Notes: generated from the sequence alone by a model not told the origin. 64,000 nt of DNA from Bilabrum cf. latius (GCA_965178125.1 OZ237740.1:1426001-1490000); one strand, 5' to 3'; counted from the stretch's first letter, positions 15,800 through 61,569 are shown. Numbers and translations are program-made.

Positions 15800-17425
15800 A
15801 TGGAGTTGAGAGTTGGAAAGTATTTTACAGTTGGCAAAAAGGTTGGATCGGGGTCGTTTGGAGGTGAGCAGAGACGTAAAATTGCTTCTATCAACGGACA
15901 ATCTGCGAAATCAGGACCCTGTAGACCACCGATTTAGACTCACCCCGCAGAAATTTATAACGGAACTAACGTCAGAAATGGACATAAAGTTGCAATCAAG
16001 TTGGAAAGTATCAAGGCTGCGCACCCGCAGCTGCATTCAGAGTCTCGAGTATACAAAATCCTCTCCGGGGGTCCTGGCATACCCAAGCTTCATTGGATGG
16101 GAGTGGAAGGAACGTACAATGTTATGGTTATTGATCTGCTCGGACTTAGCTTAGAAGATCTGTTCGCCAAGTGCAACAAGCGATTCAGCCTGAAGACGGT
16201 GCTGATGCTCGCAGACCAGATGATCTAGCGCCTCCAATTCATGCACTCGCGCTGTATGCTGCATCGGGACATTAAGCCTGACAATTTTCTCATGGGGGTT
16301 CGGCGGCGGGCAGACTTGGTTCATGTGATCGATTTTGGACTGTCGAAACGCTACCAGGACGCTCGCACCCGGGCGCACATACCGTACAGAGAAAACAAGC
16401 AACTGACTGGGACGCCGCGGTACGCCTCAATTAATGCTCACTTAGGCATAGAATAGAGCAGGCGGGATGACCTGGAGTCGCTTGGGTACGTGTTACTCTA
16501 CTTCTTGCGCGGATCGCTGCCTTGGTAGGGGCTGAAAGCGCCGAACAAGAAGAAAAAATACAAGTTGATCAGCGATACAAAGCTAGGAACTTCACTGGAA
16601 TAGCTTTGTCGCGGAGTGCCAGATGAGTTTAGGTTGTACATGGAGTACTGCAAAGCCCTCCGGTTTACAGACAAGCCAGATTACGCATTTCTGCGCAAGC
16701 GATTCCAGCAGCTCGCGGGGAGGAATGACATCGAGTACGACAGCGTGTTTGACTGGATGCTGCCGCCTCACAACATGCCTAACCCGTAGATCGCCCCAGT
16801 AGTCAGCCAAAGCAAGGCTCCTCAGCGGCGAGCGAGCGCTGATCCTTCCGCAGTAGCAACGGGCGGGGCGGACGGCGGGGCACGGCGCCGGGAGAGGATC
16901 CAGCGCAAGGGTATTTCGAAGAGGAGACTGAGCGTGGACTCGGGCGGTCTTCCTCGCGCCGGAGGGGGCCCTGGGCCCCGAGCTGGGACTGGGGCGTAGA
17001 GCTCGTCGGGCGCTGACATTGGCAGCGCGGCGGGGGCAAGGGGCGGCTCCAGCGGCGGCAAGCGCATGGGCAAGGGGGCAGGGGCTGAGGCCGTTGGTCA
17101 TGACCCACGGCATGGCAGGGCCGCTGGGGGCGAGGCCGAAGGGCCGCGGTCCCGGCATTCCCACCATCACCGACACACACACGGGGGTGGCATCGCGGCC
17201 GGGGGCAGCCGCGGATCCAAGCTGAGCTCCAGCATGATGGCCGCCCCGTCGCACTCGATTTCCTTTGAGGCGCAGGCCGAGAGGAGGGGACGGGCGTTCG
17301 AGCCGGGGCCGGGGATTGCTACGAAATCAAGGAGCGTGGAGTTGTCTCCCTCAGAGGTGGATGGCATCAGGCGGCGCATGGAGGCGCTGATGGGGGACTT
17401 GGGCGACCAGGACGGTTGGATGTAA
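15800..17425 (+). CDS. CSNK1: Casein kinase 1 (~512 aa); requires TAG=Gln
   Basis: join(15800..15863,15951..17425), intron 15864-15950 (GTGAGC...CCGCAG). 'MELRVG...GSGSFGEIY...VAIKLE...HPQL...HRDIKPDNF...DFGLSK...[28 protein letters not shown]...GSLPW*GLK'. In-frame TAG at 16226, 16454, 16526, 16601, 16787, 16997; stop TAA at 17423. Confidence 0.95.
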
Positions 17426-17695
17426 TACGTGGACGCACACACGACGGGGGGACTTGATGATGAGCGACCAGGATGGGATATGCATTGCATTGGTGCGGCA
17501 GTTGCACTTGGCGCCAAGACAAGAAGCAACACTTTTTCATAGTTTGGAGATGCAGCCGAGGTCATGAGGGAGACAGGGAGACAAAATGGGTTTTCGTTTG
17601 CTGTTAGCTACCATTATAAAAGCACAAGTCTCGGAGAACTTGAGAAGCAGCACCCCCGTTGGCTCCAAGACACCCGACCTTGTAGTGGCAAACAA

Positions 17696-20317: not shown

Positions 20318-20417
20318 TCGAGCACAGCTCCGAGAACGGCACTGCCAGTGTGCACTAGACCTGCATGGGCAAAGCATGGGCAAAATCGACGCATAGTATG
20401 CTTGGACGTGTACTACA

Positions 20418-21104: not shown

Positions 21105-21169
21105 TGCAGCGAAAAATGCTCCAGTTGCACTTGAGAGCAATACCTCTATTCACACGCAACCCCCGCCCG

Positions 21170-23344
21170 TCACAGATGTGCTCGTCTCTTGCGGAGCGTG
21201 GAGCCCATGAACACGTGCAGTTCTCTCAGTAGCAGGTGCGCGAGCCCGTCTCCTCGGGTGGGTCTTGGACGAACCCCCGAGGCAGCGCCCCTGGCCTCCG
21301 TCCCATCCACAAGATCGGCGCCCCGGCGCGGGTCGTGGCCCATGAGCGCCAGCACGGGCTCGGTGTGGTCAACGCCGGCCAGCGGCACGGCAGTTACACC
21401 GACAGTCCCGACGAATCCATCGAAGCGCTTGCCTTGCATAAACGCCTGCGAGGCGCCGTGCCTGTCGATGCGCATGCGGGGAGGCACCGCCCTCTCAATG
21501 CCCCCATTGGCACTCTCGATGCCCCCGCTGGCACTCTCGATGCCCCCGCTGGCACTCTCGATGCCCCCACTGGCACTCTCGATGCCCCCACTGGCACTCT
21601 CGCCGACCGTTGCACCCGGCCCGCCCGGCCCCTCATGCTTCCTCCTAGAATGCCCCCCACTGGTAGAGCCCCGGGGAGCCACTACCCCATCCCTGAGCTC
21701 CTGCAAAGCGGCGAGCAGATCCGCTGTGCTGGACGGGGGCACTACACCGTCGGCGGTGCCATGCAGCAGCAGCAGCGGAGGCATTCGGCCGAGAAGAGCG
21801 TGCCTGCCCGGCTCGGACAGGTGCACCGCCATGCGCTGTAGCTATCGCGCAGGCGACAGCCGAGCAAACCCAGCCTCCGTGCCTCCCATCGCGGGCGCCA
21901 TGGGCGACACTCGCTCCACCCCCTTGAGCGAGAGCGGGCCCAGGGCCACTCTCCTCGAGGCTTCGTGTTGGAAGTGACGCTGCACGCAGTACACGCCCGA
22001 CAGGCCCACCACGCCCCGGATGCTCGCCAGGATCTGGTCCGCGGGCTCCTCGTGCGACCAAGGGGACCACGACGATCCGCCCGCTGCTGGTACTCCTCCG
22101 GTGGATTTGCCGGCATAGGGCGCCAAGGCAGCGGGGGCTGCTGGGGGGTGGTGCAAGGTGGAGGTGGTCGGCGCTTTGCGGGCGCCATTAGATGCAGGCG
22201 ACAGCTCGGCTGCCATGCCCGCGCACTGCTCCCCTGCCGCGAGAGCAGCCAGCCGCAGAGCAAGCGTGGTGACCAGGTGGGCCCCTGCCGACTGCCCGAA
22301 GAGCACCACGCGGGAAACGTCGACGCAGGCCGGCACTGACGGCCGGTCGGCCGGGTGCGAGTTAAGTCGCAACTCCCGGTCAAACTGCGAGCCCAGCGCA
22401 GGCGCAGACCTCGAGTTGGCCCCTCGGAATGCATGCGACGCAAATGGATGCCCCTACAGCCGATTCGCCAGCAGGCGGCGGGCACGGGCGAGCGAGTGCA
22501 TATGGCGGGTGGTGGGGTCGTGCACGGTTGCCTGCCCTTTGCTTGTCCGGCCCTGGTTTGAGTCTCCCGTGGCACTCGCTGCCACTGCCACTGAAGTCAA
22601 TGGCTCCAAGTCGCTGCTGCCTACATTGGACGCGCGGGTTTCGGCCAAGCTCTAGCCCGGGTCGGCACCTTCCTGCCGCTGATGGGTTTTGTCCCACCTC
22701 TGCTCCTGCATGCGAGTCTCGCGGCGCATCCAGCAGAGCAGCCTTGCGATGTCGTCAGCCATGCCAGCCGCATCCGAGTGCGGATACACCCGGTACGACG
22801 GGACGAGCACTGCAGTTCCCAGCCTGTCTGCCAGTGTTCGGGCGAGCGACGCGTACTGCCAAGGCTCGCCGAACGCCCAGGCACCCCCGTGCACGTACAC
22901 GAGTGCGGGAATGCGACGCAAATCAGGAGGTTTCGCTCGTGACGGTGCCAGCCCAACCCCATCTCTCCTGACCGAAATTTCCGTTACATGCGCACGGTTC
23001 AGACGAAACCCATAAGGGAGGTAGATATCAACTCTGTGCCGCGGATGCGGGCCGTAGCTGGCCCGAACCGCTGGGCCTGCAGCCAGGCACCGTGCCAATC
23101 TGCCAACAACGCGGGGGCGGCTCAAGCCTGCAAGCAGCTCGGTTATCCCAGCCAGTGGAAACATCCATGCATCAATGCTGGCCCTGAGCCCGATGCTTTG
23201 GTCCTGGAGTGGTTGGACCCCTTCTCGATCTGAGTGGCGAAGCAGGAGCCAAGATCTGGCGAATTGCCAAACTACCGCAGCAGACCCCAGGGATGCGCCT
23301 AGATGCCAGGCATTGCGACCAACAAGATCAATGTACGAGCTCAT
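21170..23344 (-). CDS. Alpha/beta hydrolase, isoprenylcysteine methylesterase (ICME)-like (~724 aa); requires TAG=Gln
   Basis: 'YGPHPRHRVDIY', 'VYVHGGAWAFG', 'GQSAGAH', 'LLLHGTADGVVP', 'DH' lie in four same-frame pieces separated by TAG at 22652, 22454, 21842. TGA at 21170. Confidence 0.82.
21498..21602. repeat. 21-bp tandem repeat, 5 copies (ATGCCCCCRYTGGCACTCTCG), encoding ESASGGI repeats in the hydrolase
   Basis: Units start at 21498, 21519, 21540, 21561, 21582. Confidence 0.9.
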
Positions 23345-23456
23345 TTCCGCGCATGTTTTTGCGCTGATTGGGTTTTGCGTCCACCTCGAACGTTCCACCA
23401 CGAGGTTCGCTGGACAGCGCAGACGCAAAACAAGCTGCTGATAGCGTATAATCATC

Positions 23457-23873
23457 ATGGCATCTGTTGAAGGTGTAAAGCAGGAGAAGTTCGTTGTACT
23501 TGGCACATCTAAGTTCGACGAAACGCTTGAGTCTGCGCAGAAGGCAGCGAAGGAGAACGGTTCCAAGCTTTTCGTGTTTGCGTACGGTGCCGAAGGCGAG
23601 GATGGTAATTCATGGTGCCCAGACTGCGTTGACGCCAAGCCCATTATTGAAGAGGGACTTGCAAAGGTATCGCATGCGGTCGTCTACGCGTCCTGCCCCA
23701 GGGACGAATACAAGAAAGGCGAAGAGTTTCCTTACAGGAGCCATAAAGCTGTAAAGCTTCAGGCTCTCCCACAACTGAATCGAATCTCTGTGGATACTTT
23801 GGAAAGCGAGGCCTCACTGGTTGAGAATGACTGTAAAGATGCAGGAAAGGTAGACGCTGTAATCGACGGATGA
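23457..23873 (+). CDS. TXNDC17: Thioredoxin-related protein 14 (TXNDC17 / DUF953)
   Basis: 'GNSWCPDCVDAKP' active site, 138 aa, TGA stop, no internal TAG. Confidence 0.85.
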   Translation: MASVEGVKQEKFVVLGTSKFDETLESAQKAAKENGSKLFVFAYGAEGEDGNSWCPDCVDAKPIIEEGLAKVSHAVVYASCPRDEYKKGEEFPYRSHKAVKLQALPQLNRISVDTLESEASLVENDCKDAGKVDAVIDG

Positions 23874-25017: not shown

Positions 25018-25863
25018 ATGATGGCGAACACTAGTCTAAGTTGGGGGTTTGGAACCAGTCTGAGAATGCGCTCACTGCGAATTTCGACCAGAATCTTGCG
25101 TTTCGGTATCAGATGCCCAATCGGAGGTCGTTGGAAAGGCTCACAAGCTGGAGATACATCTGTCGTACCAACATCTGCCGGCAGCGGCGAACTAGAGCCC
25201 AAAAGTAGCGCAGTTGCTGATACTAATGCGACAGGCAGTGCAAGTTACTTGGCTCATTTGGACAAGCTTCGACGTAGAGACATTATTGCCACGCCATTCA
25301 AGTCAAAGGCAGAACAGCAAGAGTACACCTTCAAGGCTGCAACGCGCTTCTGGGGAGTCGTGAGAAGGTAAACCTGCCAATATGTATGACTGTTGCTGGC
25401 ACATAATGTATTGCGCGGGGCTCCATTGACTTGCTTCATTTCACAGATCATTACTGGGGTGACCGTCTTGGTGGTGGGCACTGGTGTGATTGACGCTCTG
25501 CTGCCCCACGACGGCCCACCGTTGCTTGGTATCGAGACAGTCAGCTAGATAACGCCAGAAGGTCTCCCGGAAGGCGAACTGCCACAGTCCGAGCACGACA
25601 TGCGGCTGTACACCCAGCAAGTGGTCGAGCACATCTAGGCTGCAGGCCACACCATGTCCCTGCGCGATAGAATGATCCTCAGGCGGCGGATGGCAGGGGA
25701 GGGCCGGCCCTCGCAGGATGTAGATACGCTGGCTAGGGAGTTGGATCGCCGAAGGGGCAGCATGCGCAGCACTTTGCCACTGGCCGCGTAGCCGTTGCCT
25801 ATGCCTCGGGCCCGCAAAGCGGAAGGGGACACTCGAACTGGCCCCGGAGAGAAAAAACTTTGA
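25018..25863 (+). CDS. Hypothetical single-pass membrane protein, possibly mitochondrial (~252 aa); requires TAG=Gln
   Basis: join(25018..25359,25447..25863), intron GTGAGA...TCACAG. Basic N-terminus. Splicing creates TM 'FWGVIITGVTVLVVGTGVI'. Three TAG in exon 2; TGA at 25861. Confidence 0.5.
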
Positions 25864-28022: not shown

Positions 28023-29303
28023 TTATGCGAAGACGGGCGTCCAGGCAAACATTTCAGTCCTGTGCGGCATGGCCAGGAGCTCAATCCCCCGGTCATTGCG
28101 GTCCTTGACACCTGCATCCCGCTGCAGATGCGGCACAGCGCCGTGTTCCCCGTCCAGCAGCCCCTCTGGCACGCCTGCGGGTGCTCTCTCTAGAGCGAGC
28201 AGGTAGTCACGAGCCCGACTCGCCACCTCGGCCTGCTCCTGTGCGCTCCTAGAAGCAACCACCGACAGTGAGGTGATCCTGCGGGTGGCTGCCTCCAGCG
28301 AGAGCACCTCAGTCGTGCGCTGCAGCCACTCTGCTTGCCCTGGGATGTAGCCAGCCGGCATGTCGCCGGGCTGATACATGGCTGCAGCCACGGGAGAGGT
28401 CAGGTGCAGCGCGGGCTTAAACTTGCCGCTGTTCACAATGCGGCGCATCCACTCGAAGGACTGCTGCCGGGGCACATCTTCGGGGTACAGAGTGTCCACA
28501 AACGCCTCAAGCCGGCGCATGGCAGGGCTGGCCCGCCCGTCCCTGGTGTTCCACAGACACACGAACAGAGCTCCCGGTCGCAGACATGCGTGGATGGCCT
28601 CCAGATCAGCGGCCGAATCAAACCAGTGGAAAGCTTGCGCTGCCACCACCACGTCGGCTGCCGGGCGGCCGATCTCGCCCGCGCTGACTGGTAGAGCGGC
28701 CTCCAGTGCGCCGGGAGCCTCCTGCACAGATGCGCGGACGACTGAGCACTCGACCTGCGGCTGTCCACTGGCAGGGCCTCGAGTCTGCCCCCTTGCAGCG
28801 GCAGCGGCAGCGGCAGCGGTGGGGTCGATTGAGCTGCTGCTCACGGTGCTGACCCGGCGGGCTAGCGCGTGGAGAGCTGTACCCATCTCGGCGGGCTCGG
28901 TCGCGAGGTACCGAACCGCCCACCGGGCCGGATCTTCTCCTCGAGACGAGGCTGCCTCTGCCAGCGCACTGCTGGCCCCACCAGGGCCCGACCGTAGACC
29001 TGATTCAGTGAACTTACCCGTCCCCGCGCCCAGCTCCAAAGCTGTGATAGTCCGGCGAGCACCTGGCGGTGATTCCTGGCTCTGTCCAGTGTTTCTTGTT
29101 GGCAGCTTGGCTTGAAGCACCCACTCCCAGAATGCGGATGTGGTGCGGGAGGTGTAGCTCGGTCGGCTTGAGTGGTACACGTTTGCGTCCTGGTACCCGT
29201 CAGCAGCTGCTGAATGCAACCATGCGGCCTTTTGCGGGCTTGACTGTGTCGAGAGGCGAATCCGGCGGCGAAGCAGGCTGCCCCAGCCACTCGTGAGTCG
29301 CAT
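28023..29303 (-). CDS. Class I SAM-dependent methyltransferase (Methyltransf_11/25-like)
   Basis: 'Y..SRPSY', 'LELGAGTGKFT', 'VVAAQAFHWFD', 'LRPGA'. Terminates at TAA (28023-28025). Confidence 0.85.
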   Translation of the reverse strand: MRLTSGWGSLLRRRIRLSTQSSPQKAAWLHSAAADGYQDANVYHSSRPSYTSRTTSAFWEWVLQAKLPTRNTGQSQESPPGARRTITALELGAGTGKFTESGLRSGPGGASSALAEAASSRGEDPARWAVRYLATEPAEMGTALHALARRVSTVSSSSIDPTAAAAAAAARGQTRGPASGQPQVECSVVRASVQEAPGALEAALPVSAGEIGRPAADVVVAAQAFHWFDSAADLEAIHACLRPGALFVCLWNTRDGRASPAMRRLEAFVDTLYPEDVPRQQSFEWMRRIVNSGKFKPALHLTSPVAAAMYQPGDMPAGYIPGQAEWLQRTTEVLSLEAATRRITSLSVVASRSAQEQAEVASRARDYLLALERAPAGVPEGLLDGEHGAVPHLQRDAGVKDRNDRGIELLAMPHRTEMFAWTPVFA

Positions 29304-29858
29304 CACGGCCTTTTTGTCTTACTCAGGGACTGCTTCCGCTTGATTTCACGAATTTCTTCTATGGCGCAATCGTTGAAATCCCGTTCACGCTGCTAGTCAA
29401 CCTCTCCAGGTTCGAGAGGCTCTTCTCCGTAGACTCCCTCAAAACAGCCCTTGCTAACGCACTGGTGCACGCAGTTGTCGCTTTCGAATCGAGGAATCCC
29501 CTTGCACGACTACTTCAGACAAGCTCGCCGCCGAGATTTTAAACTGATACCAGACCGTTTCTGCAAAACTGGAGACTATGCAAGCAACAATCCATGTGGG
29601 GGGAAACATTCAAGCATATTCTCCGTTCGCATCCGGCTCAATCTTACTGCTGAGTATCGCCTAGATGATACCAATACAACACTAAAAAATAATACTAGTA
29701 GCTTTACAATCATTCGCGCGTCAATCACGCAAACTCTACATGCCCTCGCTTGATTCCGGGTGGAATGGTGACGAACCACGATCGAACCTTTCAAGAAGTT
29801 CCTTGGTACCACCGAACGGACCGCAGCTACAACTCAAATAGGACACCATTGAACGGCA

Positions 29859-32800
29859 ATGTCAGACATCTACGAGCGGCAAAAGGAGTGGTTTGATTTA
29901 TCTCGTGCAGCTCATGAGGCCATTAGGATGAGGAACGAAGAGAAAGAGCTTGCTGGCGCAACATTCAGACCTCTAACCAACCCAGACTCAGATGCAGCGA
30001 CCCTTCAGCGAAGCACAATGGTGCTCCCCTTGCTCGCCGGAACGACATCACACCGAGAAAGAGTTAGGACGGCACGACTTCGGGCGGTTGCAGACAGGTG
30101 GTGAGTGCCGACCTCGTGTGCACCCACCAGTGGAGTTCTCGCAAAGTACCTCTGCTGTCTCTCGTCTTTGTCGCCCGTCCACTGCGCGCAGTCGAGAATT
30201 AGCCTCGTCAAAGGCGCCCTCGGATCGCAGGTATTTGCTGAGATCAGCTGCAGCTGTAGAGTCAGGCAAGGGGCTGCCTCGGGCAAGCCGGCTCGTCGCC
30301 CAGTCTACCATCGATTCGCTTCTAAAATTGTTGTCGAACACCCCTGAATACAGTGAATTCGCAGAATCTGCCAGAGAAGAGCGAAAAACGCCGCTTGAGC
30401 TCCATGCCCAGCCAGACGCGAGCCGCAGCTCGAAAGCGCGCATTGGCCAGCGCAGAGTTGCTGCTGGCATGGAAAAGGGCCAGCCGCCGCTCCTTGCAGC
30501 TGGTGCTACAATAGCAAAGGATGATATGCATGCATTGGTTCTCGCATCGGATCCTGGTGGGCAGAGTATCGGCGACAGGCACGACACGCTGCACTCTCTC
30601 GACGCAGAGCTGCAGGGGGAGCGTATGCGATGGGAGCGGTGAGCACATGCAGCCCCGTGCCGGCGGTAGCTGCGTTGGAATATCGTGGATTATAGTTCAT
30701 CCAGCGATCATGTCTTTGCCCCACAGTATTTCTTCGCTTCCATGCCAGCACGCTTCCATGCACCCTATGGCTCCGCACACGCATACGCAGCGAGAGAGAC
30801 GGGTTCCTCAAGCAACTCGAGCAGGCAGCCATTCCAGTGCCAAAGAGCCCAGCCACCGCTGGCAGCTCTCCGCCTCCATCAACCACCACTGGCAGTTGGA
30901 CTAGGGAGGGCGCTGGAGCAGCGATGGATGGTGCCTTCGATGGTACAGGTGGCAGGCACCATGCTGCTGCACCACCACCCAGCAAGTCCCCACGCAGGGC
31001 GGGCATGCCGTTTGTGGCAGCGCCTGCGGAGGTAGTACGCCTCCGATTGCTCGTGAGGCATCAAGCGGGCGAGCTGCGGAAGTTGCGGGCAGAGGCCACC
31101 CGTGCCCGCGAGGCCGACGCATCGACAGCGGGCGATCTCCGCGCTCTGGAGGAGCGCATGCAGGCTCTGGAGCTGGGGCAGTCTGCCACCGCGGGGGGTA
31201 TGGGCGGGGTGTCGCCTTCTGGGGCGAGCCTGCATGCGGCCACTGCGGGGGATCCTGCCCTGGGCTCATCGGAGCCTCCCTCGCCTGGGGTGGGTTGTCC
31301 TGCACCTGGCAGGTCTGCTCCATCGCCCGCGACTCGGCTGGTCCCTCTGGAGGCACTGAAACGGGCCGCCAATGGGTGGCAGGGGCACGCCATCGGGGGC
31401 TACCAGTCGGGCTGGCTAGCGGTTGCATTCGCAGGCGATCGCACGGCGAGGCAAGGGGCTACGCAAGCAGGGGCAGATGAGGTGCGCTTGGGCCTGTCGC
31501 GGCTGGATGCATGGGTGCAGGGCACTGCAGCATCCCTGCCGGGCGCATCCCGCACGTCAGCCGGGTTCGCCCAGGCGCTACGTGCCCCCGCGATGGCAGG
31601 CTGCGTGCAGACTGGACTGGCGGCAGTGGCAGCTGTGGCGCGGGATGCATCCACTCGGTGGGACGCTCTCTTTTGCCTGCTCGTGGGCGGGGGCGACCAC
31701 TGCTTCCCGGGAGAGGGCGCAGGTAAGGGGAATTGGAAGGCTGCACAGGTGCAGGCCGGTTAGGGTGGCGGTGGTTCCGAGGAGGGGCAGCGGGCGGTCT
31801 CGCTGTGCGTCTTGCGCCGGGGCAGTGCCAAGGGCTGGCTGCCGCTGCACAAGACCCGCATCCACCAGCCCGAGCCAGATGATGGACCCCAGTTGCCGAT
31901 GGAGAAAGACACGGAGCACATGGAGCCGGGAGCGGGGACGGGAACGCAAGCAGGGACAGGGGCAGAAGCAGAGGTGCCCACGGACGGTGGCCGGCAGTCA
32001 ACCGGCTCCGGTCGGAGCTTGCTGCTGGAATGTGGGCCCAACCGCGCCGAGTTTGCCTTTGGACGGAGCGAAGAAGCGCAGCTTTGGCGGGGGGCACTGG
32101 GGCGAGCGACAGCAGCGGCCCAGCTGGTGCGGCTGGATGCGAAACGGAGGGCGGAGGCAAGGGCGCGGGCGGCGAGGGAGCGGGCGGAGGGGGCCGGTGG
32201 GGCGGCGGAGGGGGCGGGTCTTGAGCAGGAGGAGGTGGGTGGAGGCTAGCAGCGTGGGCGAGAAGGAGAAGGAGAAGGAGATTCCTCTGCCAGTGGCCCG
32301 GTGGGTCCATCCGCAGAGGCTGTGGCAGAGGCTCGCCGTGAGCTGCTGCTAGCCGCCAGCGCAGAGGGACCCGTGCTCAAGCGGGCTTGGGCCGGGGATC
32401 GACCCGCCCGCGCGCCCAAGTGGCACCTGCGGCTGCTCAGCATGGATCCAAGCCGGCTCAAGCTTGAGTACCACGATGCTGAGCCCGTCCTCTGGGCGGG
32501 TGCTGGGGAGGTGCGCGGTGCCAGCGATGCAGGTGGGAAGAGCAAGGGCAAGGACAAGGACAAGGGGGCGCGAGCTGAAGACAGCGGTTTCTGGCCGGCA
32601 GCTGTCTTGCTAGGAGCTCGCACAGGAGACTCGGAATCGGAATCTCTGTATACCTGTGCGGTTGTCGGCGTCGCGGGTGGTCGCTATGACAGACACCGCA
32701 CCAGTGCCGGTGCCGGTGCCGGCGGTCGAACTGATGGCTCCGCTGTGCATCACAGCGATGGATTCGGAGAGGACGATGGGGAAGACGGTGGGCCCGTGAG

Positions 32801-32933
32801 GGCCCGCGGAGGCGGGTTCTTCGGTGCGATGGTTCTCGCGGAGGAGACAAGGACCGGGTGCCTTGCTTGGGCACTTGCCGTGGCACAGGCAGCTCAGGTG
32901 CCCGTGTTTGGGGACCTAGACTCGCTGTAGTGA
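29859..32933 (+). CDS. Hypothetical coiled-coil protein with possible C-terminal PH-like domain (~943 aa); requires TAG=Gln
   Basis: Tentative join(29859..30100,30192..30638,30791..32933), with introns GTGAGT...CGCAG and GTGAGC...CGCAG. 'TFRPLTN' motif near the N-terminus; 'EGPVLKR...W..RLL...LEYH' near the C-terminus. TAG at 31761, 32247, 32928; TGA at 32931. Confidence 0.5.
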
Positions 32934-33936: not shown

Positions 33937-33983
<47 letters not shown>

Positions 33984-38459: not shown

Positions 38460-38807
38460 TCACGACGAAGACTCGTCGCCGAAGAGGCCGCCACCTCCGC
38501 CAGAGACGGACTCGTCCTCCTCCTCTTCCTCCTCCTCCTCCTCAGCAGCAGCCGCGCCGGCATCGCCGCCAGCGGCAGCAGCGCCGCCACCGCCGCCACC
38601 ACCGCCGCCGACGTTCACGAGCTTCTTGTAGCCCTCCTCGAGCAGCTCATCGAGGGACTTGTCTGCCATGGCGGCGATGAGGCGGTCGACCTCCTCACCA
38701 TCGACCTCAGCTCCAGTCACGTTGAGCACCTCGGTGATCTTGTCCTTGGTGACCTCAGCCTCCGGGTCCTTAAGCTTGAGCAGCAGGTAGGTAGCTACGG
38801 CGTTCAT
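38460..38807 (-). CDS. RPLP2: 60S acidic ribosomal protein P2
   Basis: 'MNAVATYLLLKL...ITEVLNVTGAEVD...KSLDELLEEG..KL', Gly/Ala hinge, poly-Glu, 'GGLFGD' tail. TGA stop. A TTTGCAG just upstream of the ATG suggests a 5'-UTR intron. Confidence 0.9.
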   Translation of the reverse strand: MNAVATYLLLKLKDPEAEVTKDKITEVLNVTGAEVDGEEVDRLIAAMADKSLDELLEEGYKKLVNVGGGGGGGGGAAAAGGDAGAAAAEEEEEEEEEDESVSGGGGGLFGDESSS

Positions 38808-51189: not shown

Positions 51190-52354
51190 TCAGAATGCCT
51201 CAAGCCACTTCGTGTAGTACACGCATGTCTCAGGGGATACCTTGCTGCTGCCAGGAAAGCAATCCTCTGCCACAGGGCACATGCCGCAGGGCACGCTGGT
51301 CAGTGCAGGCGCGGGGAGCTTCTTCCGGATCCTCTTGTACCGCACGGTGGCCTACATCACCTTTTCCTGGGCGATGGCGCGGCGGACATCGGCGCTGAGG
51401 GCGCTCTCGCCCGCCTTGCGCTCACCGGAGCTTGCAGCGGAGGCACTCTTGCCCGCACGCCCGGAGGACGAAGACGAGGACGAGGACTCCCCGCTGGCGC
51501 TGGCAGCGCCCCCAGCGGCCGGGCCGTCGTCTGGGATCCCCAGCCCGGCGCCAGCCGAAATGTCTGCCGCCCCACCACCCGCGTGCTTGGGTGGCATGGC
51601 GGCGACGGCCCTGTCCATGACCAGCGAGTCGATCACCTGCTGCACGTCATCCGTGCCGAGCGGGATCTTGGACACGCCGCTCTTCCGGATGTGCTCCGCG
51701 ATCTCTGCTCGAGTCTTCATCGAGCCCGCCGGTTGCAGGAATTGAGCAACTGATCTTCGCAAGGAATTTATAAAATGCGTGTCCAATTCGCCATCAGTGT
51801 ACCACGCCCCCCCTGTGACCTGCGCCGATGGAACCAATTCGTACAGCATGTAGATTTTGCGACTCTTGAAAGTCACACTTTTCACGCTCTTGATCAATTT
51901 CTTCCCTTCAAGCCTTTTCAAAGCCTTATTCATCGCAGCAACCTGCAATTTAGTCTGCGACTTGATGGTTCTTGTCCAAATACCGACATCGCCGGCCTCT
52001 CGAATAGCTTTCAGGACCTGCTCGTCTTCCGGAGAAAGGGTTCCCATCTTGTTAGCCATTCTCTCAGAAAAGGCTTTGAAAGATATTTCTCCAGAGGCAA
52101 GCTTCTAGGGCACAATGACCTTCTGCGGGACATCACGGGGCACGTTGTATTTGGGAGGCGAGCAATATGCACGGCAGGCACGAAACCCGTCAAACACCAT
52201 CAGTGTAATGGCTCACAGCATCAATTAGGGACCGGATCGCTTTCATGTGATTCTTGATAGGGCCAAATGATTTCTCCAGCTCTTTCTGTCCAACTCCAGT
52301 GGGGTGCTGCTGGATGAAAGCAAGGAGTTTTCTAGCCGCAGGTTCATCCGCCAT
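51190..52354 (-). CDS. POLR3F: RNA polymerase III subunit RPC34/RPC6 (~356 aa); requires TAG=Gln
   Basis: complement(join(51190..52122,52217..52354)). 'GIWTRTIK', 'LKRLEGKKLIKSVKSV...KIYMLYELVPS..VTGGAWYTDGELD..FI'. The C-terminal 4Fe-4S motif 'PCGMCPVAEDC...SPETCVYYTKWL' lies downstream of TAG 51352. Second TAG at 52105. TGA stop. Confidence 0.92.
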
Positions 52355-52548
52355 GATGCCAGGACCAATCGACTGGTGCGTGCCACAAGTTCGATAGTAA
52401 CTCTATTTCGTTCGTAGAAACTGGATTCAGACGCCAAAGCCCACGATTGAGATCAGTTCTGGCGGCGTGCTTCAGCAGTTGAGCGAGCGCGTCTCACAAT
52501 GCAATGATCGAGCGCAACACCCAAAACAGATTCTCACGCAAAATTTGA

Positions 52549-53997
52549 ATGCTGAAGGGCCTGCATGGCATATAGAGACTCATTGGGTGGGACCCAGGCC
52601 GTCGTGGGGTGCAACACTTGATACGAGAGGGCGAGGCGGGGCTCGTTGGAGCTGCCAGCCTGCTCGCAAAGGCAACTGCAGTCGGGATCTTGACTGGCTT
52701 TCCATGCGTGCAAGCAGAACCTCCGACTGAGAATGACGGAATTTGTGGTGCTGTGTTGCTTGGAATGGCACTGGTGCGATCTGGCATTCGTGTCACATTG
52801 ATGACGGATTCAACGAACGAGGCTGTTGTGGAGGCCAGTGCAGCCTGCGGTCGCAAAATTCTAGGGAATGATGCTGCCCTGGGCGTTGCATGTTTTGCAC
52901 CAATGAGTAAAGCAGAGTACTTTGCAGATTCTGCGGCGGTAGACCCAGCAGGAACACCAGTAAAATGTAGCAAGTCATTCGATCGGCTGGTGCGCGAGAG
53001 CGCAAGTCTGGACTGCCTCATTGCCATTGAGCGAGCGTCCCCAAGCCCTAATGGGCACCCCATGACGATGCGTGCTAGGTCGATGTCTGGCTTGGTTGCC
53101 CCATTGCACTGGATGTTCCCGCGCAACGTTGCAGCAAGCTCTGCAGGAGCTGATCTCGAGCTCGATCGAGATCGGGCCATGCAGGACTCGTTCTTGCGTG
53201 TCGTCCGTCAATCTAGAGCGGGTCATGATGGGGCTGGCGCTGCATCAGTTGGTCCGGTAACTGGCTCCAGCGAGTCCTGTGATGCTATCGGGGCAGCAGC
53301 AACCGCAGCAGGAGCAGGACCAGACAGCCGTGTGGCACAGGCTCCTGTGCCCTGGCCCTGGCGCACGGCTTGCGTGGGTGATGGTGGCAATGAACTGGGC
53401 ATGGGTGCCGTTGCAGAAGCCGTGGAGGCACACGTGGACCGGGGCGCCGAGATCGTCAGTGCGTTCGGGTGCGAGAGCGTGGTAAGCGCTGGAGTTAGCG
53501 AGTGGGGAGCCATGGGCATCGCGGCGGCAATAGCGGACATGTCGGCGGAGGGTGGAGAGAGTAAGGGACTGAGTACCATGAAAGATGCAAAGAGAGGTGA
53601 TGAGGAGGCAGGGGAAGTGCCTGAGAGCGCAGGTGAAGCCAGCGGAGATGAGAGAAGCACAGCTCGAGGGGCACCACCCTCTGCTGAAACGACGAATGAT
53701 GGCAGTCGAAAATCCGACGAATCAGTATTTTCAGGGCGCGACCTAGGGCCCAAAGGTGCTCATTTTGAGCTGCCTTCCGAGCTTATTCTGGCGGCAAGCC
53801 CGCCCTCTGAAGCAGCCGCAGCGGCTCGGAGGCGCTTGCTTCCCTCTGTCGAGCAATACGGGGCGCTTCTCGATGCGTGCGCTTCTGCTGGTGCGAGAGA
53901 TGGGATCCTTGGATCAATTGGCAGGACAGTCGATGGGCTTGATTGGGAAGTTCATGCTCAAATGCTGAGGGCATGCAGAGGCGACTTGTCGGGCTAA
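52549..53997 (+). CDS. DUF4392 / D-glutamate cyclase C-terminal-like domain protein (~482 aa); requires TAG=Gln
   Basis: 'DPGRRGV', 'ILTGFP', 'ENDG..GA', 'IAIER', 'MRARSM', 'GDGGNELGMG', 'VSEWG', 'RDG...VDGL'. TAG at 52573 lies between ATG 52549 and the DPG motif. Stop TAA at 53995. Confidence 0.8.
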
Positions 53998-54262
53998 ATT
54001 GGGGGGTTCTAATTTTAACGCATTTGTAGCGTGCACAATTCGTGGTTTTCGAGAACAGGAGCACCGCAGTCGTTTGTAAGGCGCTGTGTCCGGCCTAGCT
54101 TATTGCAGGTAGGCTCGTTGCCGTATTTCGTTTCTTAACGCTTTACTTGTGGCGTTGTGAGCATCTGTACCCCAAGTAGTAGCATGCACCGCTACCCAAA
54201 CAACGCCGATCTTTCCTTTGATCCCGTGTACCGTGCAGCCCTCTCATCGTTCTGGCGCAGCA

Positions 54263-57200
54263 ATGACATCCGTCCTGAAGCGCCGTCACGTGTTTTCGAG
54301 CGATGTTGGTGTATTGAAGCGTGCTGGCCTTCGCTTGTTCGAGAGACTTGCAGCCTCGGGCATCGGAGCGCAGTCTGTCGGCGAGCTCGAGCAGGTTGGT
54401 CCCACTGTCTCACGGTTGGCGGACTCCCTGCAGCAATCAGAAAAGCTGCGTATATTTGAAGAGTGGTCGCCGCCGCGTAACCCGCCAGAGGAGGTCATCA
54501 GCCTGCGTGGAAAAGGGGTTGAATGCTTCTGCTCGTCGCAGTCCGACGATTCGCACAGCGCTGAAGCAGTCGCGCAGAACGAGGCTAAGGTGCATCCATC
54601 ATCTGGTTGGCAAGCAGGAGGCAAGCGAGGAAAGATGAAGTCCAACTGGGGCGTTGACCTTGGTCGAACCGAGATGATCAGCCAAGTCGATGTCGTCTGG
54701 GGCCAGGTGCAAGTAACGGCTGCCTCAGGAGGCAACAAGGGTGATTCTCTGCCAATCAAGGTTCGCGTCGAGGTGGCATCTCCCAAGGGCGAGTGGGTGA
54801 AGGCATGCGTGATGCGCATTCACAAGGACGACGTGGAGGAGGACAAGAAGAAGGTAGAGGCAGCCCGGCAGCAGGGGGTAAGCACCGGCCGGAAGCGCGG
54901 GAAACGCCGCGGAGGTCCCGCCATTCCGGACGATGATGACGACGATGAAGATGAGGAAGATGAGGAGGACGAGGAGGAGGACAGCAGCGACGACGAGGAC
55001 GATTTCTTCGACGACGACGAGGGCGGGGGCGACGGGCCCGCCGCCTCGGGTCCCAAGCCCACTATCGAGAAGGAGAGGCTCGCCGCGGACGGCGGGTACG
55101 GGCCTGCCCTGCCACCTGAGATGATGGCAGCCCTGGGGCTAGCCCCTGCGCCAGTCGCTGCTGCGGAGGACGAGGCCGATGGCGAGGAGGGCGCTTCTGG
55201 CAAAGGGGGCGCGGCTTCCGGGGCAGGTGCGGGCGGTGATGCTGCCGGTGAGGGCAAGGGGGCCGGGGCCCAGGCATCGGGGGATGGCAAGGAGAAGAAG
55301 ACCAAGACCTTTTAGCAGGTTGTGGGCCGCCCGGTGCGCCGCCGGCTGCGCATCCCAGAGGTGGCTGGCATGCCGGTGTCGATGCGGTTCCGCAAGCCCA
55401 TCCCTGGCCGCCGCATCCGCCTACGCATGGACGGCGTGCTGGAGAGCAACGACGCACAGGCCCACGCCATCGCCGAGGTGAAGATCGTGAGCCCCATGGA
55501 CGCCGAGAAGGCTCCCTCCGCGGCCCGCTCCGTGGCTGCCCTGCGTGACTGGCTAGCGGACATCGTGGCCATGTGCGCCGACAGCCGAGGCGCGGGGGAG
55601 AGGACCCGGGCTGCCGCCTTGCGGGCACTGGCTGCGCTGGCGGCCTCGAGCGGCAGCATGGCGGCCATTCTGGCGCTGGTGGAGGCTTTGACAGCGGGGG
55701 AACGCGGCGTGCTCCAGTAGATGCAAAGCCAGCCCGCCGGAGGGTCGGACGGCTCGGGTCTTGCGGGGGACAAGGACCTGGCCAAGGTGCTTGACCAGCT
55801 GGCACTGGATCTCCGCAAGCAGGAGAGACGCGTGAATGCCGAGGTAACCAAGGCAGAGCTGAAACCGCCCGTGCTGCAGGGGGGCGGCGGCGGGGCTGCA
55901 GTGGTCGAGTTCCAGCCAAAGTTCGACGGCAGCTTCACGGGTGTCCCGAACCGCTACATGCAGCTGCAGAACGGGGACCAGGACGCCTATTCGCAGAGCA
56001 GTAACGCCACTGCCTTCACGCTGGCGGGTGGGTTCACGCATGGGAAGGCATCGTGGGAGTTCCTGCTGGTAAACGACACCACGTCTTAGTGCTCGTGCTT
56101 CGGAATGGGTCTCAAGCCTATCGTGGACACAAACTACTCGTCTAGTCCCCAGATGCTGCTCTACAGGTCGTTCAATGGACAGAGGTACGACCGTGGCCGC
56201 CCCCTGTCCACGCCCGCCATGCCCAAGGTTAACAAGGGCGACCGCATTCGCTTCGACCTTGACATGGATGAGGGCACGTGCAGCGTGGCTGTGAACGGGA
56301 GGCCCGCTGGCGTCGCATTCACTAACCTCAAGGGCCTCGCTATCTGGCCATGCGCGCATGCCTACAGCTCCAGCCGCACGATGCGGATCCTGGCCATCCA
56401 GGGCCCGCCGGAGTTTGCGAATGGCTGCGGCATTATTGGTGTCGCAAGCGGAGGAACCTCTGAGGCCGGCAAATCGCAGGGCAGCGGAGGTAGCATGGGT
56501 GTGCGTGTGGGTCCGCTGGGCGAATACCACCGGGTGGCGCAGGCTCTGCAGCTCGATGCCGTCCCCGAGTCCGCGCTGTACGTGCCCGCGGGAGTGCTCG
56601 GCAGACGCGGGGCGGAAGGAGCCCACCCGGACGATGACGCGGCGGAGGGCGTAGTGGCGCAGGTGCAGGTACGTTCCCCCAAGGACGGTATCGACGGTGA
56701 CTTGCCGAGGCCGCGACCTGGCTAGGTGGGGAACGCCGGTGCCGGCATGGATGCCGACCGGCTGCGTACGCTGCGTAAGAAGAATCTGAGCGCGCCGGAT
56801 CACAGCCTGAGCATGCGGTGTCCCGAGGAGAAGGAGTGCCTGCGGCACGTGGGAGCGCTCACTCTGGCGAGCTACAAAGCTGGTGACGACAGCCCGGAGC
56901 CTGAGTCCAAGGCCGCAGAGAAGGGCGATGATCCTGACGCAGACTCGGACGAAGACGAGGCAAAGAAAAGCAGCAAGTCCGAGGACAGCGGGGCTCCGAC
57001 CGGCGCTGCCCTCCGAGCCATCGGGGCGTCCTGCGCTAGCCTGGCCCAGGCCTTGGCGAGCACCTCCCAGGAGGAAGGCGAGGAGCCCGCATCGGGGGCT
57101 GCTGGAGGATCGGACAAGCCGAGCAAGTCCCGGGTGCAGGCTCCCTCGAGCTGTGATCTTGCTAGCGTGCTGCCTCTTGCATGGGACGCAGCAGAGAGGC

Positions 57201-59398
57201 CCTACTGCTTCACGGCCTTCCACCTGGGCCGCAGGTTCAAGCGGTTCTCGACGCAAGCGGGCTTCTCGGCCAGCCTGGGCGTGCTGGTGGACGACGACGG
57301 CGAGGACGACGAAATCACCAACGCGGCCCCCCCACGCATCGCCGGTGTGATCGAGGTCATCGGTGACGGGAAGGTGCTCTGGAGAATGGACAGGGCCGTA
57401 GCCCCGGGGGACACGTTCGATGTGGACGTGAGCGTGCTGGATATCGATGTCCTGGTGCTGCGAGCAGGGTCTGCGCACGCCGATCTGGGCGTGAACGCTG
57501 TGTTCGTGAAGCCTGCTGTGGAGGTTTGCGACGACTGGACCTGTGCCGGGTGGAGAAACGACCGGTTTCAGCTCAATTGCGAGATGTGGGGGAATTTCCG
57601 CGGCAGGATGCCCGTGCTGAACGCGGCTGCCACCACAGGTGATGGTGGTTCCGGCGGCGCTGCTGGCGGCCCCTCCTCTGGAGCAGGCGGCGACTCTGCC
57701 AAGGCGCGGGCAGCCCCAGCAGGCACCCCGCATGCCATTGCGGCCTAGTTGCTCTCAACCGCTAGCTCTGTTGCCCTGCAGCACGCCCGTGAGATGCAGG
57801 TGGAGGCGGCCAAGAGGGGTCCCTCCGAAGAGGGCGAGTCTCCCTGGGACCTCGAGAGCCCCTATGCCATCGAGCTGTCCGGAGATGGCCTGGCGGGGCT
57901 GGCCAACGCAATGGTCAGGCTGCGGGCCGCGGTGCGGAACCCGTCGACCCCTGCAGACCTGAAGGACTGGGCCGCGGGGGCGCTGACCGACCTCTTGTTG
58001 GTCACTTTTGCGAATCTGCGGCGGCTGGTGGTGTCTCGCGTGGATGCAGCGGAGGCCGAGGGGCTCCATGGGCTGTCAACGCAAGAAAAGGCGGCCCGTG
58101 CCGCTCGGGCTGCGCTGCTCACAGGCGGGGCGGCAGACTCGGCAGCAGCAGACACGCCGGCGGGCGCTGCTTCCATGAGCACAGACCGCCTTGAGGCAGC
58201 GGCTGCCACTGGCACGTTGCAAGGGCTCGCTTCCGTCCTCCACGCACTTGTGGGCGACGCGATGCTGCCCGGGCAGGTCCGGGAGCGAGCCTCCAAGGCG
58301 CTGCAGGCAGGGCAGTCGCTTCTATTCAAGTCAGAGCGGGACGCGCGCGAGTTCGTGCGCGAGCAGCTTGGACTCGGCGAGGAGGCCGAGGAGGTGAGCG
58401 GGGGCATTTCCGCGGCTGCTGGTGAGGCCGTGGGTGGCGGCAGCGGGGCAGTCGTGGAACTGGAGTTCTCTTGGCCGTCCAGCCTCCTCACACCCGCAAC
58501 GGATCCGGCGAGCAAGAGCAAGGGCGGCAAGGGCAAGGGGGACGATGCCTCCGCGGGCGAGCTGCCCCACGAGGCGGTGCTTGACACGGCGCTGCTTCGG
58601 CTGCGCCTCGAGTGCTAGCGGAGGGGCCTGCAGCACCGCGTGATCGGCCACTGGCCAGCACGCGCCTACCTGGTTGTGTGTCTGCCCACCCGCGAGGAGA
58701 TGCAGGCCTTCGTGGGCACCTTGGGGACTGAGGGAATGGACGACGGGCAGGACACTGGGGAGGCCGCGGGGGCCAACCCGTGGGAGGCTGTGGGGGTGCA
58801 GCTGGGGGGCAAGGGAGCAGCGGTCGCGGCGCAAGCAGGCTTGGTCAAGGACAGCGGGGGTGGGTCAACTGCAGCCTCCGCGACGACGGCTGTGGGCAAG
58901 GGGTCATCTGCCCCTGCCAGCGCGGCGGCGGGAGCTCCGGCTGGGGTAGTGCCTCCACCTGCCAAGGGGGGCATCGCGGCCGCAAGCACGGTGGCAGGGC
59001 CGAGCAAGGGCGGTGATGGTAGTGGGCCCGCTGGCAGCGGCGGGAAGCATGGCGCGGTGTCCACGGACCTGCACAGCATGCGGGCGAGGAGGGGGGGGCG
59101 CGGTCGCAGGGCCCGCCTGCCGGTGGAGGGTGCCCTGGGTCGTGCGCTGGTGGGGGCGGGTCTGTGGGACTGGCAGGACCACGCAGGTAGCAAGCTGGCC
59201 GACGTGCCCCTCAGCGTGGAGCCGAGCCCCGAGTGGTCCCGTAAGTACTTCCTACCTGCGCAGCCACTTGCATGCGTCCGCTTGTACGCCGCGGCAAACG
59301 ATGGTGCTGATTCCACCATGAAGCGCGTGGTCGAGTCGATCCAGGACTTCTTACCAGCAGCCGGGCCGGTCCGAGACGCGGCCGTTGCAGTTGCCTGA
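54263..59398 (+). CDS. Large (~1711 aa) protein with discoidin/F5-8-like, SPRY-like and NPCBM-like segments; requires TAG=Gln
   Basis: Seven same-frame ORF pieces separated by TAG at 55313, 55718, 56087, 56723, 57746, 58616; TGA at 59396. SPRY-like 'GKASWEFLL...CFG...GDRIRFDLDMDEGTCSVAVNG...GVAFTNL'. NPCBM-like 'FSASLGV...EVIGDGKVLW'. Acidic tract. Confidence 0.72.
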
Positions 59399-59544
59399 AT
59401 GCGCACTAGTGGTGTTGGCGGGTGTGGATGCATCGATTGTGCTTTGCGCCTTGGAACTTTGGACATCAGCCTATGACATCCAAACCGGAACAACTTGTTG
59501 AACGGCGCCACGCGCGGTCAACCCGCTGGTATTATTCGGGCGGC

Positions 59545-61569
59545 ATGCGAAACTTCTGCGTCCTTGCGGCATTACCCATAGTAGTGTTCGGTGCTCAAGT
59601 ATCTCAGACGAGGTCCTACGAGGCTGTGAGGCGGGCTTTCGAGCAGCCCGGGTGTGCCAGCTCGCGGCTGTTGGGGAGACGTCACCAGCGCATTTTGCGT
59701 GGCCTGCAGGACAGCGTACCCGTTTGCAATGCAGCTGTCCAAGATTGCTCCATAGACAATTATGCTTCGTCGGATATTTATGCTATCGAATGGGCCAACT
59801 ACACAACGACAACAGCTGGTGGACCTGAACGGGTAACCTGCACCTTCGGCGATCAGTATCGCACGTACGTCGTGCCTGGCACTGCAGGGACAACGAAAGC
59901 CATCTTGTACTTCTCCGGTGGCGGTGTATGTCTCTCAGCGCAAAGCTGTGGCCTCCTATCACCTCTTCAAGGCCCTTTTGATTTGCCTGCTGGAAGCTTG
60001 GGCCCTCTTCAATTCACCACGGCCTCTATCCCTTCCTCGGATGCTAGCGATGCATTTGAGCATGTTGACACCGTGATGGAAGGGGGCCATCTCATATTTG
60101 TGCCGTACTGCACCGGTGACGTGTAAGTTTATGCTTGCGCACAAGCTCGATTGTGCAGTTGTGCTATCCCATCGTATTCAGTGATAGTAATCCCTGTATT
60201 GTTTAAAAAACCTCTCAGGTTCATGGGTAATTAGGTCCACACGTACGAGGCGCAATTGCCATCTCTTGGGGTAGGCATGACCATCGAAGAGGCGAACTGG
60301 CAGCGCGCCGCAGACCTACTCGCTGGCGCGAATAGGACCTTTGACGGGAGTCGAATCGCAACTGTTGATACGCAAACAGGCACGGCGAGTACGACGATTC
60401 GGCACCTCGGACGTGGTGTTGTCAAGCAGGTGCTAGACCTCCTCGGCGGCAGCCCTGACCCCGCCACCGGTGCCGTGCGAGGCGTCGGTATTTTGCCGGA
60501 TGTCCCTGACCAGCTCGCCGTGATGGGCTGCTCGGCCGGGTCGATGGGAGCACAACTGGCTGCTCCCTTGCTCTACTAGTGGGCAAAAGCCGTGGGTGTG
60601 GGCTCTCTCTCGCTGGTGGCCGACAGCTTCATCGGGGCCTTCGAACAGACCGCCACCCTGCAGGGCGCCGTCCGCTCGTTCGCGGGGTGCGGCCTGTTCC
60701 CGCTGGGGGCCAGCGGGGCCACACCCAGCGATGATGAGGACGGAGGGGGCAGTGCCTGGGCTTTCGGGTCCCTGCGGGCCGCGGTGGTGGCAGGCGGCTA
60801 CACCCGCGAGCGATGCCTTGAGGGGACCATGGAGCTCAACCTGCCAGTCATACTAGCGGCGGCAATGGCGGGAGTGGCGGATGACACCGATGATGATGCG
60901 GTCCCCGTGTCCTTCGCCAGCGTGAACATTGAGGGCGATTACCAGCAGGTGGGCTACAACCAGATAATGACCAAGCCTTGGCCCCAGGGCCTGGATGCTG
61001 CTGCGTCCTACGTGGTGGTCGAGACGCTGAGGGCGGCCTTCGATCGGAACTTTGACGCTGCCGCTTTCAACCCTGGGCCAGACGAGCTGTCAGAGGCCTT
61101 CAGGGAGGCACTGGAGGAGTGGGGGCCCCTTCGAGACGCGGGGATGCGCGCTCTGCAGGAGAGCGGGGCGGCCGTGTGGATGGGGGACGGCACCGCCCAC
61201 TGCGTGTCTCCGTACGCCGAGCGGTTCACCGAGATGGAGTTCCTTACGGGGAAGACCCCGGCAGCCTTCGTGGGTGACGTGCTCCGTCTGCAGGCAGAGG
61301 CAGTCGCGGGTATGGAGGACGATGGCACTGGCAGCGGGGACTACGACCCGGCCGTGGTGCAGGGGGCCAGCCGGTGCGCGCCCTGCCTGCTGGGGCTGGA
61401 ATTCTGCCAGGATGCAGCAAGGGTGCAGGGCGGGCCGGCAGAGAACGGCTGTGGTACTGCAGGCGACGACGATGAAGGAGAGGACGGAGCCAGTCGTCGG
61501 AGCCCAGCTGTGTGGCAAGGGTGGCTAGTCGCGCCGCTTTGCGTGGCTGCATGGGTCCTAAGCCGCTAA
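59545..61569 (+). CDS. Pectinacetylesterase/Notum-family esterase, secreted, possibly GPI-anchored (~642 aa); requires TAG=Gln
   Basis: join(59545..60122,60219..61569), intron GTAAGT...TCTCAG. Signal peptide, 'YFSGGGVC', 'FVPYCTGDVFMGN*', 'GCSAGS', 'ADS', 'AHC', hydrophobic C-terminal tail. TAG at 60232 and 60577; stop TAA at 61567. Confidence 0.8.

Follow-up and report, generated by a model that had tools for sequence, protein, structure and literature searches.

We analysed a 64,000-nucleotide stretch of DNA from Bilabrum cf. latius (GCA_965178125.1 OZ237740.1:1426001-1490000), called here the window, with regard to the meaning of its TAG and TAA codons (UAG and UAA in the mRNA, together UAR). 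The window has a GC content of 63% (40,504 G+C of 64,000 nucleotides; 0.54-0.73 in 2-kb bins) and is tightly packed with eukaryotic genes on both strands. Our results make it very likely that the nuclear code used here reads UAG as glutamine and keeps UAA and UGA as terminators, a combination which we take to be the pattern of NCBI table 15.

Open reading frames, genes and introns

The longest open reading frame (ORF) of the window has 734 amino acids under the standard code, and again 734 when TGA and TAG serve as stops. When TGA and TAA are the stops, the top ORFs reach 4,004, 1,746 and 1,304 amino acids; thus, long ORFs emerge only when TAG is read through. Pfam families (E ≤ 0.001) were matched by 12 of the 16 long ORFs bounded by TGA and TAA, which encode the following:

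EF-hand/ankyrin protein
DXD glycosyltransferase
casein kinase 1 (CK1)
DEAD/Helicase_C (RecQ-like) protein
alpha/beta hydrolase
Arv1
methyltransferase
Cid1-type poly(A) polymerase
CCDC113/CCDC96
sortilin/Vps10
D-glutamate-cyclase-like protein (PF14336)
SPRY protein

A further 80 ORFs were taken from the gaps, and six of them carry a Pfam family (sideroflexin, DUF4787, acidic ribosomal P protein, PP2C, Rpc34 and zf-HIT/BCD1). Within the 64 kb, a tRNA scan returned no tRNA gene, and no Rfam family, rRNA included, was found; nor does the window contain the eRF1 gene.

RNA contigs were examined on the stretch from 15 to 35 kb. There, contigs of the public runs X5 and X7 skip six short GT..AG introns, all with GTGAG or GTAAG donors and CAG acceptors, which contigs of X1, likely a DNA run, do not skip. 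These introns, together with one predicted elsewhere, are as follows:

15864-15950 (+): RNA-verified intron of CK1, 87 nucleotides, skipped by the contigs (joint 15861/15949)
25360-25446 (+): RNA-verified GT..AG intron, 87 nucleotides, skipped by X5 and X7 contigs and holding an in-frame TAA at 25369-25371
29561-29647 (-): RNA-verified intron, 87 nucleotides
30101-30191: RNA-verified intron, 91 nucleotides
30639-30790: RNA-verified intron, 152 nucleotides
34375-34530: RNA-verified intron, 156 nucleotides
60123-60218 (+): predicted intron, 96 nucleotides (GTAAGT...TCTCAG), holding an in-frame TAA at 60124-60126, with a GC content of 0.41 like that of the RNA-verified introns

The last of these lies in a gene that we call 'PAE-like'. 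Its TAA at 60124 is part of the GTAAGT donor and stands between two parts of the gene that are coding in the same frame; removal of the predicted intron would join ...YCTGDV to FMGN.... Exactly 87 nucleotides were found in three of the six verified introns, and the lengths of the 156-nucleotide verified and 96-nucleotide predicted introns can likewise be divided by three. Within the CK1 intron, the reading frame is open except for a single TAG.

Census of TAG, TAA and TGA

The codons were counted in 19 gene models (16,462 codons), from which the verified introns and the one predicted intron had been removed, and in which the start was set at the first Met downstream of the last upstream stop. 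In frame, these models contain 84 TAG, no TAA and no TGA, whereas the two other frames of the same DNA together contain 172 TAG, 94 TAA and 498 TGA, that is 86, 47 and 249 per frame. TAG is equally frequent in and out of frame (84 vs 86), and TAA and TGA are excluded from the frames. At least one TAG is present in 17 of the 19 models, and TAG would account for 84 of their 780 glutamine codons (10.8%); the 16 long ORFs hold 85 TAG, 552 CAG and 134 CAA in frame. Neither a codon log-odds score nor a 3-periodic Markov model trained on the window separated the frames well enough (in-frame mean of 0.08 bit per codon), and the coding-potential score of several genes was no better in frame than out of frame.

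The original prediction, made from the sequence alone, had reported no internal TAA. This holds for the spliced frames, but two TAAs do stand in frame between coding parts (60124 and 25369), the first in the predicted intron and the second in a verified one. When TGA is taken as the only stop, TAAs in real genes are limited to positions upstream of the start or of the homology, to introns and to the 3' end.

Gene ends could be tabulated for 20 genes, among which TGA closes 15 and TAA five, and TAG is required at none. PP2C has a further TGA end, past an intron that itself carries an in-frame TGA. This agrees with the original prediction that no gene needs TAG as its stop, although translation may stop at the TAG in one gene end of the form TAG-TGA (32928-32933). 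The 22 TGA ends counted earlier were not fully reproduced, since only the 15 TGA ends and that of PP2C were modelled. UGA is a terminator here and not a tryptophan codon, as seen from its absence in frame, from its 15 of 20 gene ends and from the end of Rpc34:

51190-51192 (-): TGA terminator of RNA polymerase III subunit Rpc34/RPC6, at a conserved C-terminus

The alignment of this protein to human RPC6 (7a6h_P) reaches residue 315 of 316, and the query ends two residues past the common WLE.

The same counts bear on the possibility that both UAR codons mean glutamine, as in codes of the NCBI table 6 type known from ciliates, Hexamita and Dasycladales, with internal TAAs being too rare to be seen at high GC and the TAA 'ends' being read through to the next TGA. 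Codons of the form NNA are indeed under-used in the window (GC3 of 0.52-0.82 per ORF), but CAA still makes up 19% of CAA and CAG together. From the CAA/CAG ratio of 132/564, such a code should yield 19.7 internal TAAs, as had been anticipated in kind by the original prediction, and none was observed in the 19 models (P = 2e-8). Even the lowest NNA/NNG ratio, that of TTA/TTG (17/165), gives an expectation of 8.7 (P = 3e-4). TAA is moreover frequent out of frame, with the 94 occurrences in two frames given above.

TAG at glutamine positions

Alignments of the CK1 and sortilin proteins place TAG at the following positions:

16454-16456 (+): TAG at an invariant Gln of CK1 (HLGIE-Q-SRRDD) in the rice CK1 alignment, unchanged in the spliced RNA contig X5 record 9
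16526-16528 (+): TAG at an invariant Gln of CK1 (LPW-Q-GLKA) in the rice CK1 alignment, present in the same RNA contig
41878-41880 (-): TAG at sortilin residue 773, where five of five homologues have Q, including that of Cafeteria roenbergensis (P0143)
43381-43383 (-): TAG at sortilin residue 272, where the 97%-identical P0140 and also P0142 have Q

The two CK1 codons are among five TAGs that lie inside the stretch aligned to rice CK1 (3sv0_A, E = 4.7e-123). Six further TAGs are found in an N-terminal Q-rich tract of sortilin. Taken together, these alignments argue that TAG is read as glutamine in the window.

The spliced contig X5 record 9 spans 15949-17067 without a differing letter and contains six in-frame TAGs of CK1. 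Since RNA and DNA agree across these six codons, the reading of TAG is not due to RNA editing, within the limits of such contigs, which may mask minor edited forms. More generally, the idea that in-frame TAGs are not translated as such, owing to RNA editing, pseudogenes or assembly errors, is a formal possibility that we regard as exceedingly improbable. It would have to account for TAGs in 17 of 19 models in which, for as many as 3,978 codons, neither TAA nor TGA occurs, for TAG on conserved glutamines, and for four DNA and RNA runs that show no letter differing from the window. Among the contigs of these runs, all identical to the window, we found no TAA/TGA or TAG/CAG variation.

TAG use does not depend on the position within the gene. 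In the last 30, 50 and 100 codons of the 19 genes we observed 3, 4 and 7 TAGs, against 2.9, 4.8 and 9.7 expected, so that in this small sample TAG is not depleted near the 3' ends. One gene end combines TAG and TGA:

32928-32933 (+): TAG immediately before the TGA terminator of a three-exon gene that is expressed (RNA contig record 14)

This TAG may be what is left of an earlier TAG stop, the protein having been extended by the least possible length, or it may still be stopping translation. It is one of two observations that would suit an ambiguous, context-dependent code of the type of Condylostoma, karyorelictids or Blastocrithidia, in which TAG is mostly a sense codon and stops near mRNA 3' ends, or in which TAA has a dual role. 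The other is a TAG 13 codons upstream of the TAA of CCDC113, where termination would be compatible with the DNA. Such a code seems unlikely to us, given that TAG is not depleted near gene ends and is needed at none of the 20 tabulated ends. TGA and TAA are never in frame, unlike in codes that have no dedicated stop, and the ends defined by homology (Rpc34, PF14336, sortilin and the relatives of the 'PAE-like' protein) fall on TGA or TAA.

Genes closed by TAA

The five TAA ends, and the ORF that follows the first of them, are listed here:

17423-17425 (+): TAA terminator of CK1; the next in-frame TGA is at 20315, and GC falls from 0.66 to 0.53 after the TAA
17426-20317 (+): ORF of a RecQ-type helicase (Pfam DEAD and Helicase_C) that shares the frame of CK1 and has a TGA stop
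28023-28025 (-): TAA terminator of the methyltransferase-domain gene; a TGA follows five codons later
40778-40780 (+): TAA terminator of the CCDC113/CCDC96 coiled-coil gene; a second in-frame TAA lies 34 codons on, and GC falls from 0.73 to 0.45
53995-53997 (+): TAA terminator of the D-glutamate-cyclase-like gene (PF14336, former DUF4392), supported by the profile end and by the relative P0003
61567-61569 (+): TAA terminator of the apparently lineage-restricted 'PAE-like' gene, supported by the relative P0260; GC falls from 0.67 to 0.47

It had been claimed that five gene models end in TAA, that TAA is still a terminator and that the two UAR codons are therefore uncoupled. All five ends are present, at 17423, 40778, 53995 and 61567 on the plus strand and at 28023-28025 on the minus strand, and each closes a named ORF; set beside an in-frame count of zero against 47 per off-frame, they bear the claim out. 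The shift to AT-richer sequence that had been described past two of the ends was found at all five, with GC over the 150 nucleotides on the 3' side falling from 0.57-0.73 to 0.45-0.56. A similar fall follows 12 of the 15 TGA ends.

If TGA were the only stop, a single ORF of 1,555 codons would span CK1 and the RecQ-type helicase, divided only by the TAA, with the next TGA 964 codons on. The CK1 TAA is taken as a real end because read-through would fuse two unrelated enzymes. In the PF14336 gene, the match extends to profile position 289 of 291 at residue 475 of 482, seven codons before the TAA. A relative, P0003, which is 82% identical to this protein, stops at the same residue; more distant homologues run on for 0-20 residues. 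Likewise, P0260, which is 93% identical to the 'PAE-like' protein, stops at the same residue as that protein, whose frame meets a TGA only 144 codons past the TAA. For these two genes, the earlier statement that TAA sits at the expected protein end is thus supported by the relatives and, for PF14336, by a complete profile. Altogether, three of the five TAA ends are backed by homology.

These ends also complete the case on a code in which both UAR codons are glutamine. A TGA does follow the methyltransferase TAA after just five codons, as the read-through of such 'ends' would have it. But under table 6, read-through would produce the CK1-RecQ fusion and would lengthen the 'PAE-like' protein by 144 codons of AT-richer sequence, beyond the point at which its 93%-identical relative ends. 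It would also run through further in-frame TAAs 5, 7 and 47 codons on the 3' side of the PF14336-gene TAA, that is three more within 47 codons. Together with the expected but missing internal TAAs, this leads us to consider a table 6 code as highly improbable.

Another possibility is that TAA is an unassigned or avoided codon and that the five genes end elsewhere, for instance because introns near the 3' end bypass the TAA. Two other in-frame TAAs do lie in introns, one verified and one predicted, and the RNA contigs are those of the 15-35 kb stretch and do not show a 3' end for the CK1 mRNA or its separation from that of RecQ. However, the GTRAG 5' splice motif, common to all seven introns examined, is absent at each of the terminal TAAs. 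Two of these TAAs coincide with the ends of relatives' proteins, a Pfam profile is complete just before one, and the composition shifts after all five. We therefore hold this explanation to be very unlikely, and favor TAA as a genuine terminator of the five genes.

The gene ending at 61567 had been labelled a 'PAE-like esterase', a name that received no Pfam support even at E ≤ 1. The motifs GGGxC, YCTGD and GCSAGS of its protein presumably hint at a putative serine hydrolase. The gene (59311-61569, +) has six matches among 1.84 billion representatives, all of them short fragments with 45-94% identity, and it looks lineage-restricted.

Strength of the reading

Several points weigh against UAG as glutamine with UAA and UGA as the terminators, or narrow the evidence for it. 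The models were delimited by TAA and TGA, so that their zero in-frame count is partly built in; it is still informative because stop-free runs of up to 3,978 codons and the homology cannot come from the choice of boundaries, and its weight is carried by ORF lengths, homology and the off-frame controls. The basis is about 20 genes in a single 64-kb window, and a rare sense TAA (fewer than about 1 in 5,000 codons) would be compatible with these data. Not every TAG faces a glutamine. At the three remaining aligned TAGs of CK1, rice has N, A and A; at sortilin residue 272, the other three of the five homologues have S, D and K; and distant homologues have E or T opposite the sole TAG of the PF14336 gene. 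All of these are variable positions. As for the gene ends, the methyltransferase end is uninformative on whether TAA is a stop or a sense codon, given the TGA five codons on, and the C-terminal tails of CK1 and CCDC113 are of low complexity and end without a homology anchor. Gene calling in the relatives used the standard code, which means that a shared end indicates a standard stop codon of any of the three kinds. Finally, the gene end TAG TGA at 32928-32933 would also fit a TAG that still terminates.

Comparison with known codes

A code with UAG as glutamine and UAA and UGA as stops was described in the fornicate Iotanema spirale (Panek et al. 2017, PMC5304391). The first reassignments of UAG alone with UAA kept as a stop were reported in 2017, in Iotanema (Gln) and in the rhizarian exLh (Leu) (PMC5304391). 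Later cases concern Scotinosphaera (Ser), Protocruzia and two phyllopharyngean lineages (Gln) and another phyllopharyngean lineage (Leu) (PMC11687900). According to both papers, a CUA anticodon reads UAG and not UAA, whereas a UUA anticodon reads both (PMC5304391, PMC11687900); because CUA is specific for UAG, UAG can be reassigned alone.

A comparable mechanism, which follows published work, might operate here. A tRNA-Gln with the anticodon CUA would read UAG but not UAA, its C34 having no wobble to A, and the release factor eRF1 would have lost recognition of UAG while keeping that of UAA and UGA. This asymmetry would explain why the two UAR codons are uncoupled in this direction.

Iotanema shares with the window both the glutamine meaning of UAG and the retention of UAA as a stop, and in both UAG is a minority glutamine codon (about 8% in Iotanema, PMC5304391; 10.8% in the window). 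Nevertheless, Iotanema is an anaerobic metamonad of an unrelated lineage and has UAA as its primary stop, whereas TGA closes 15 and TAA five of 20 genes here, at 63% GC. Protocruzia tuzeti and the two phyllopharyngean lineages resemble the window in having reassigned UAG alone to glutamine (McGowan et al. 2024, PMC11687900), and the mechanism proposed for them is the same, a CUA suppressor tRNA unable to read UAA (PMC11687900). These ciliates have GC contents of 27-54%, with UAA as the dominant stop and UGA as the rarest (PMC11687900), in contrast to the GC-rich window in which TGA dominates. In exLh and Scotinosphaera, UAG is uncoupled and UAA kept as a stop as in the window, but the amino acid is leucine or serine and not glutamine.

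Codes in which both UAR codons are glutamine (NCBI table 6 type) occur in many ciliates, hexamitin diplomonads, ulvophycean algae and Amoeboaphelidium (sources including PMC5304391 and PMC11687900). They have UAG = Gln in common with the window and differ from it in that UAA is glutamine as well, while here no TAA is in frame and TAA closes genes. Amoeboaphelidium was considered as the source of the window and rejected, its genome having a GC content of about 40% (PMC10608142) against 63% in the window.

The type of code is thus already known, and the uncoupling of the UAR codons is not new in principle. What differs here is the lineage and the composition, that is a GC-rich genome region in which TGA closes three quarters of the genes. 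Nuclear codes that give UAG and UAA different meanings are few (Iotanema, a rhizarian, Scotinosphaera, Protocruzia, some phyllopharyngeans and one ciliate with two sense meanings; PMC5304391, PMC11687900), and codes that split the two codons are a natural test of why both usually change together. An independent, GC-rich stramenopile case with TGA as the main stop would widen the compositional range of UAG-only reassignment and would bear on the choice between codon-capture and ambiguous-intermediate models. In practice, annotating this organism with the standard code or with table 6 will give wrong results, and proteins of its relatives already stand in databases as truncated fragments.

Lineage and possible origin of the code

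The best named match of the sortilin is that of the bicosoecid Cafeteria roenbergensis (52% identity). Relatives above it have 97%, 81% and 54% identity, and the remaining matches have 52% or less. In a quick maximum-likelihood tree of 24 sortilins, for which the careful search is unfinished, the window and two close relatives form a group (support 100) that is sister to Cafeteria with two further sequences (SH-aLRT 90), both groups lying within a seven-row clade with support 100. The homologues of CK1 gave taxonomically mixed matches and no taxonomic signal. On this single-gene basis, the window is probably nuclear DNA of a GC-rich, intron-poor flagellate, a stramenopile related to Cafeteria.

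Cafeteria roenbergensis is likewise GC-rich, with a genome of about 70% GC (PMC6972860), and the accessible portion of its genome paper mentions a non-standard code for the mitochondrion only (PMC6972860). In its full-length sortilin model, Q stands at the position of the window's TAG. The nuclear code of Cafeteria thus appears to be standard, as far as that portion of the paper goes.

The database proteins of the close relatives (P0140, P0141, P0003 and P0260-P0265) lack part of the N-terminus or are fragments, and in some of them the initial M takes the place of a T or L in the window. Truncation is expected if gene callers using the standard code broke the genes at in-frame TAGs, and these fragments hint that the close relatives may share the UAG code. 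Two scans of metagenomes were made. With the PF14336 protein, 78 pattern matches were obtained and no relative among them. With P0142, two distant loci, L001 and L002 (GC of 0.67 and 0.65), were found, whose sortilin matches carry no in-frame stop and are thus uninformative on a shared code change.

Our literature search found no report of a nuclear code change in stramenopiles or bicosoecids, subscription journals being thinly covered, so that a report may exist. One candidate for a nuclear UAG change in stramenopiles turned out to concern a plastid. We tentatively suggest, as a possibility that we would not yet call probable, that this is the first nuclear code change in stramenopiles, in which a small GC-rich clade related to Cafeteria, made up of the window organism and relatives with about 97% and 81% protein identity, gave UAG the meaning of glutamine once it had split from a standard-code Cafeteria. 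If so, UAG would be expected to be a common stop at 63% GC and not a vanishing one, which would argue against codon capture and for a tRNA-driven ambiguous intermediate, and an earlier UAG stop could survive in the TAG-TGA tandem at 32928. Given its presence in runs labelled as other organisms, the organism may also be easy to obtain in culture. DNA of 52001-62000 (70-100% of the sampled words) was present in runs under four organism codes from four studies, with smaller shares in metagenomes labelled 'protist' and 'algae'. Cultures of other organisms may often contain this one as well, which would suit a bacterivore.

Other features of the window

A single uninterrupted ORF of about 3,978 codons (1181-13192, -) contains 16 in-frame TAGs; it encodes ankyrin repeats, a pair of EF-hands and long low-complexity tracts rich in Gly, Ala and Arg. 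Tandem repeats were seen within two other coding sequences. The alpha/beta-hydrolase gene (21173-23731, -) encodes four copies of the peptide SASGGIE followed by a variant fifth copy, SANGGIE, and the end of the zf-HIT/BCD1 gene (63700-64000, +), which leaves the window, carries four tandem copies of GPKDTAADQQSA. The acidic ribosomal P protein (38460-38503, -) has the C-terminus ...GGGGGLFGDESSS; as this family presumably ends normally in ...GFGLFD, the protein of the window would be a few residues longer. Lastly, Arv1 (+), which stops with the TGA at 27937, and the methyltransferase gene (-), which stops with the TAA at 28023, are convergent, with 83 nucleotides separating their stops. A single contig (run X5 record 13) covers both ends, and the 3' untranslated regions of the two genes probably overlap.

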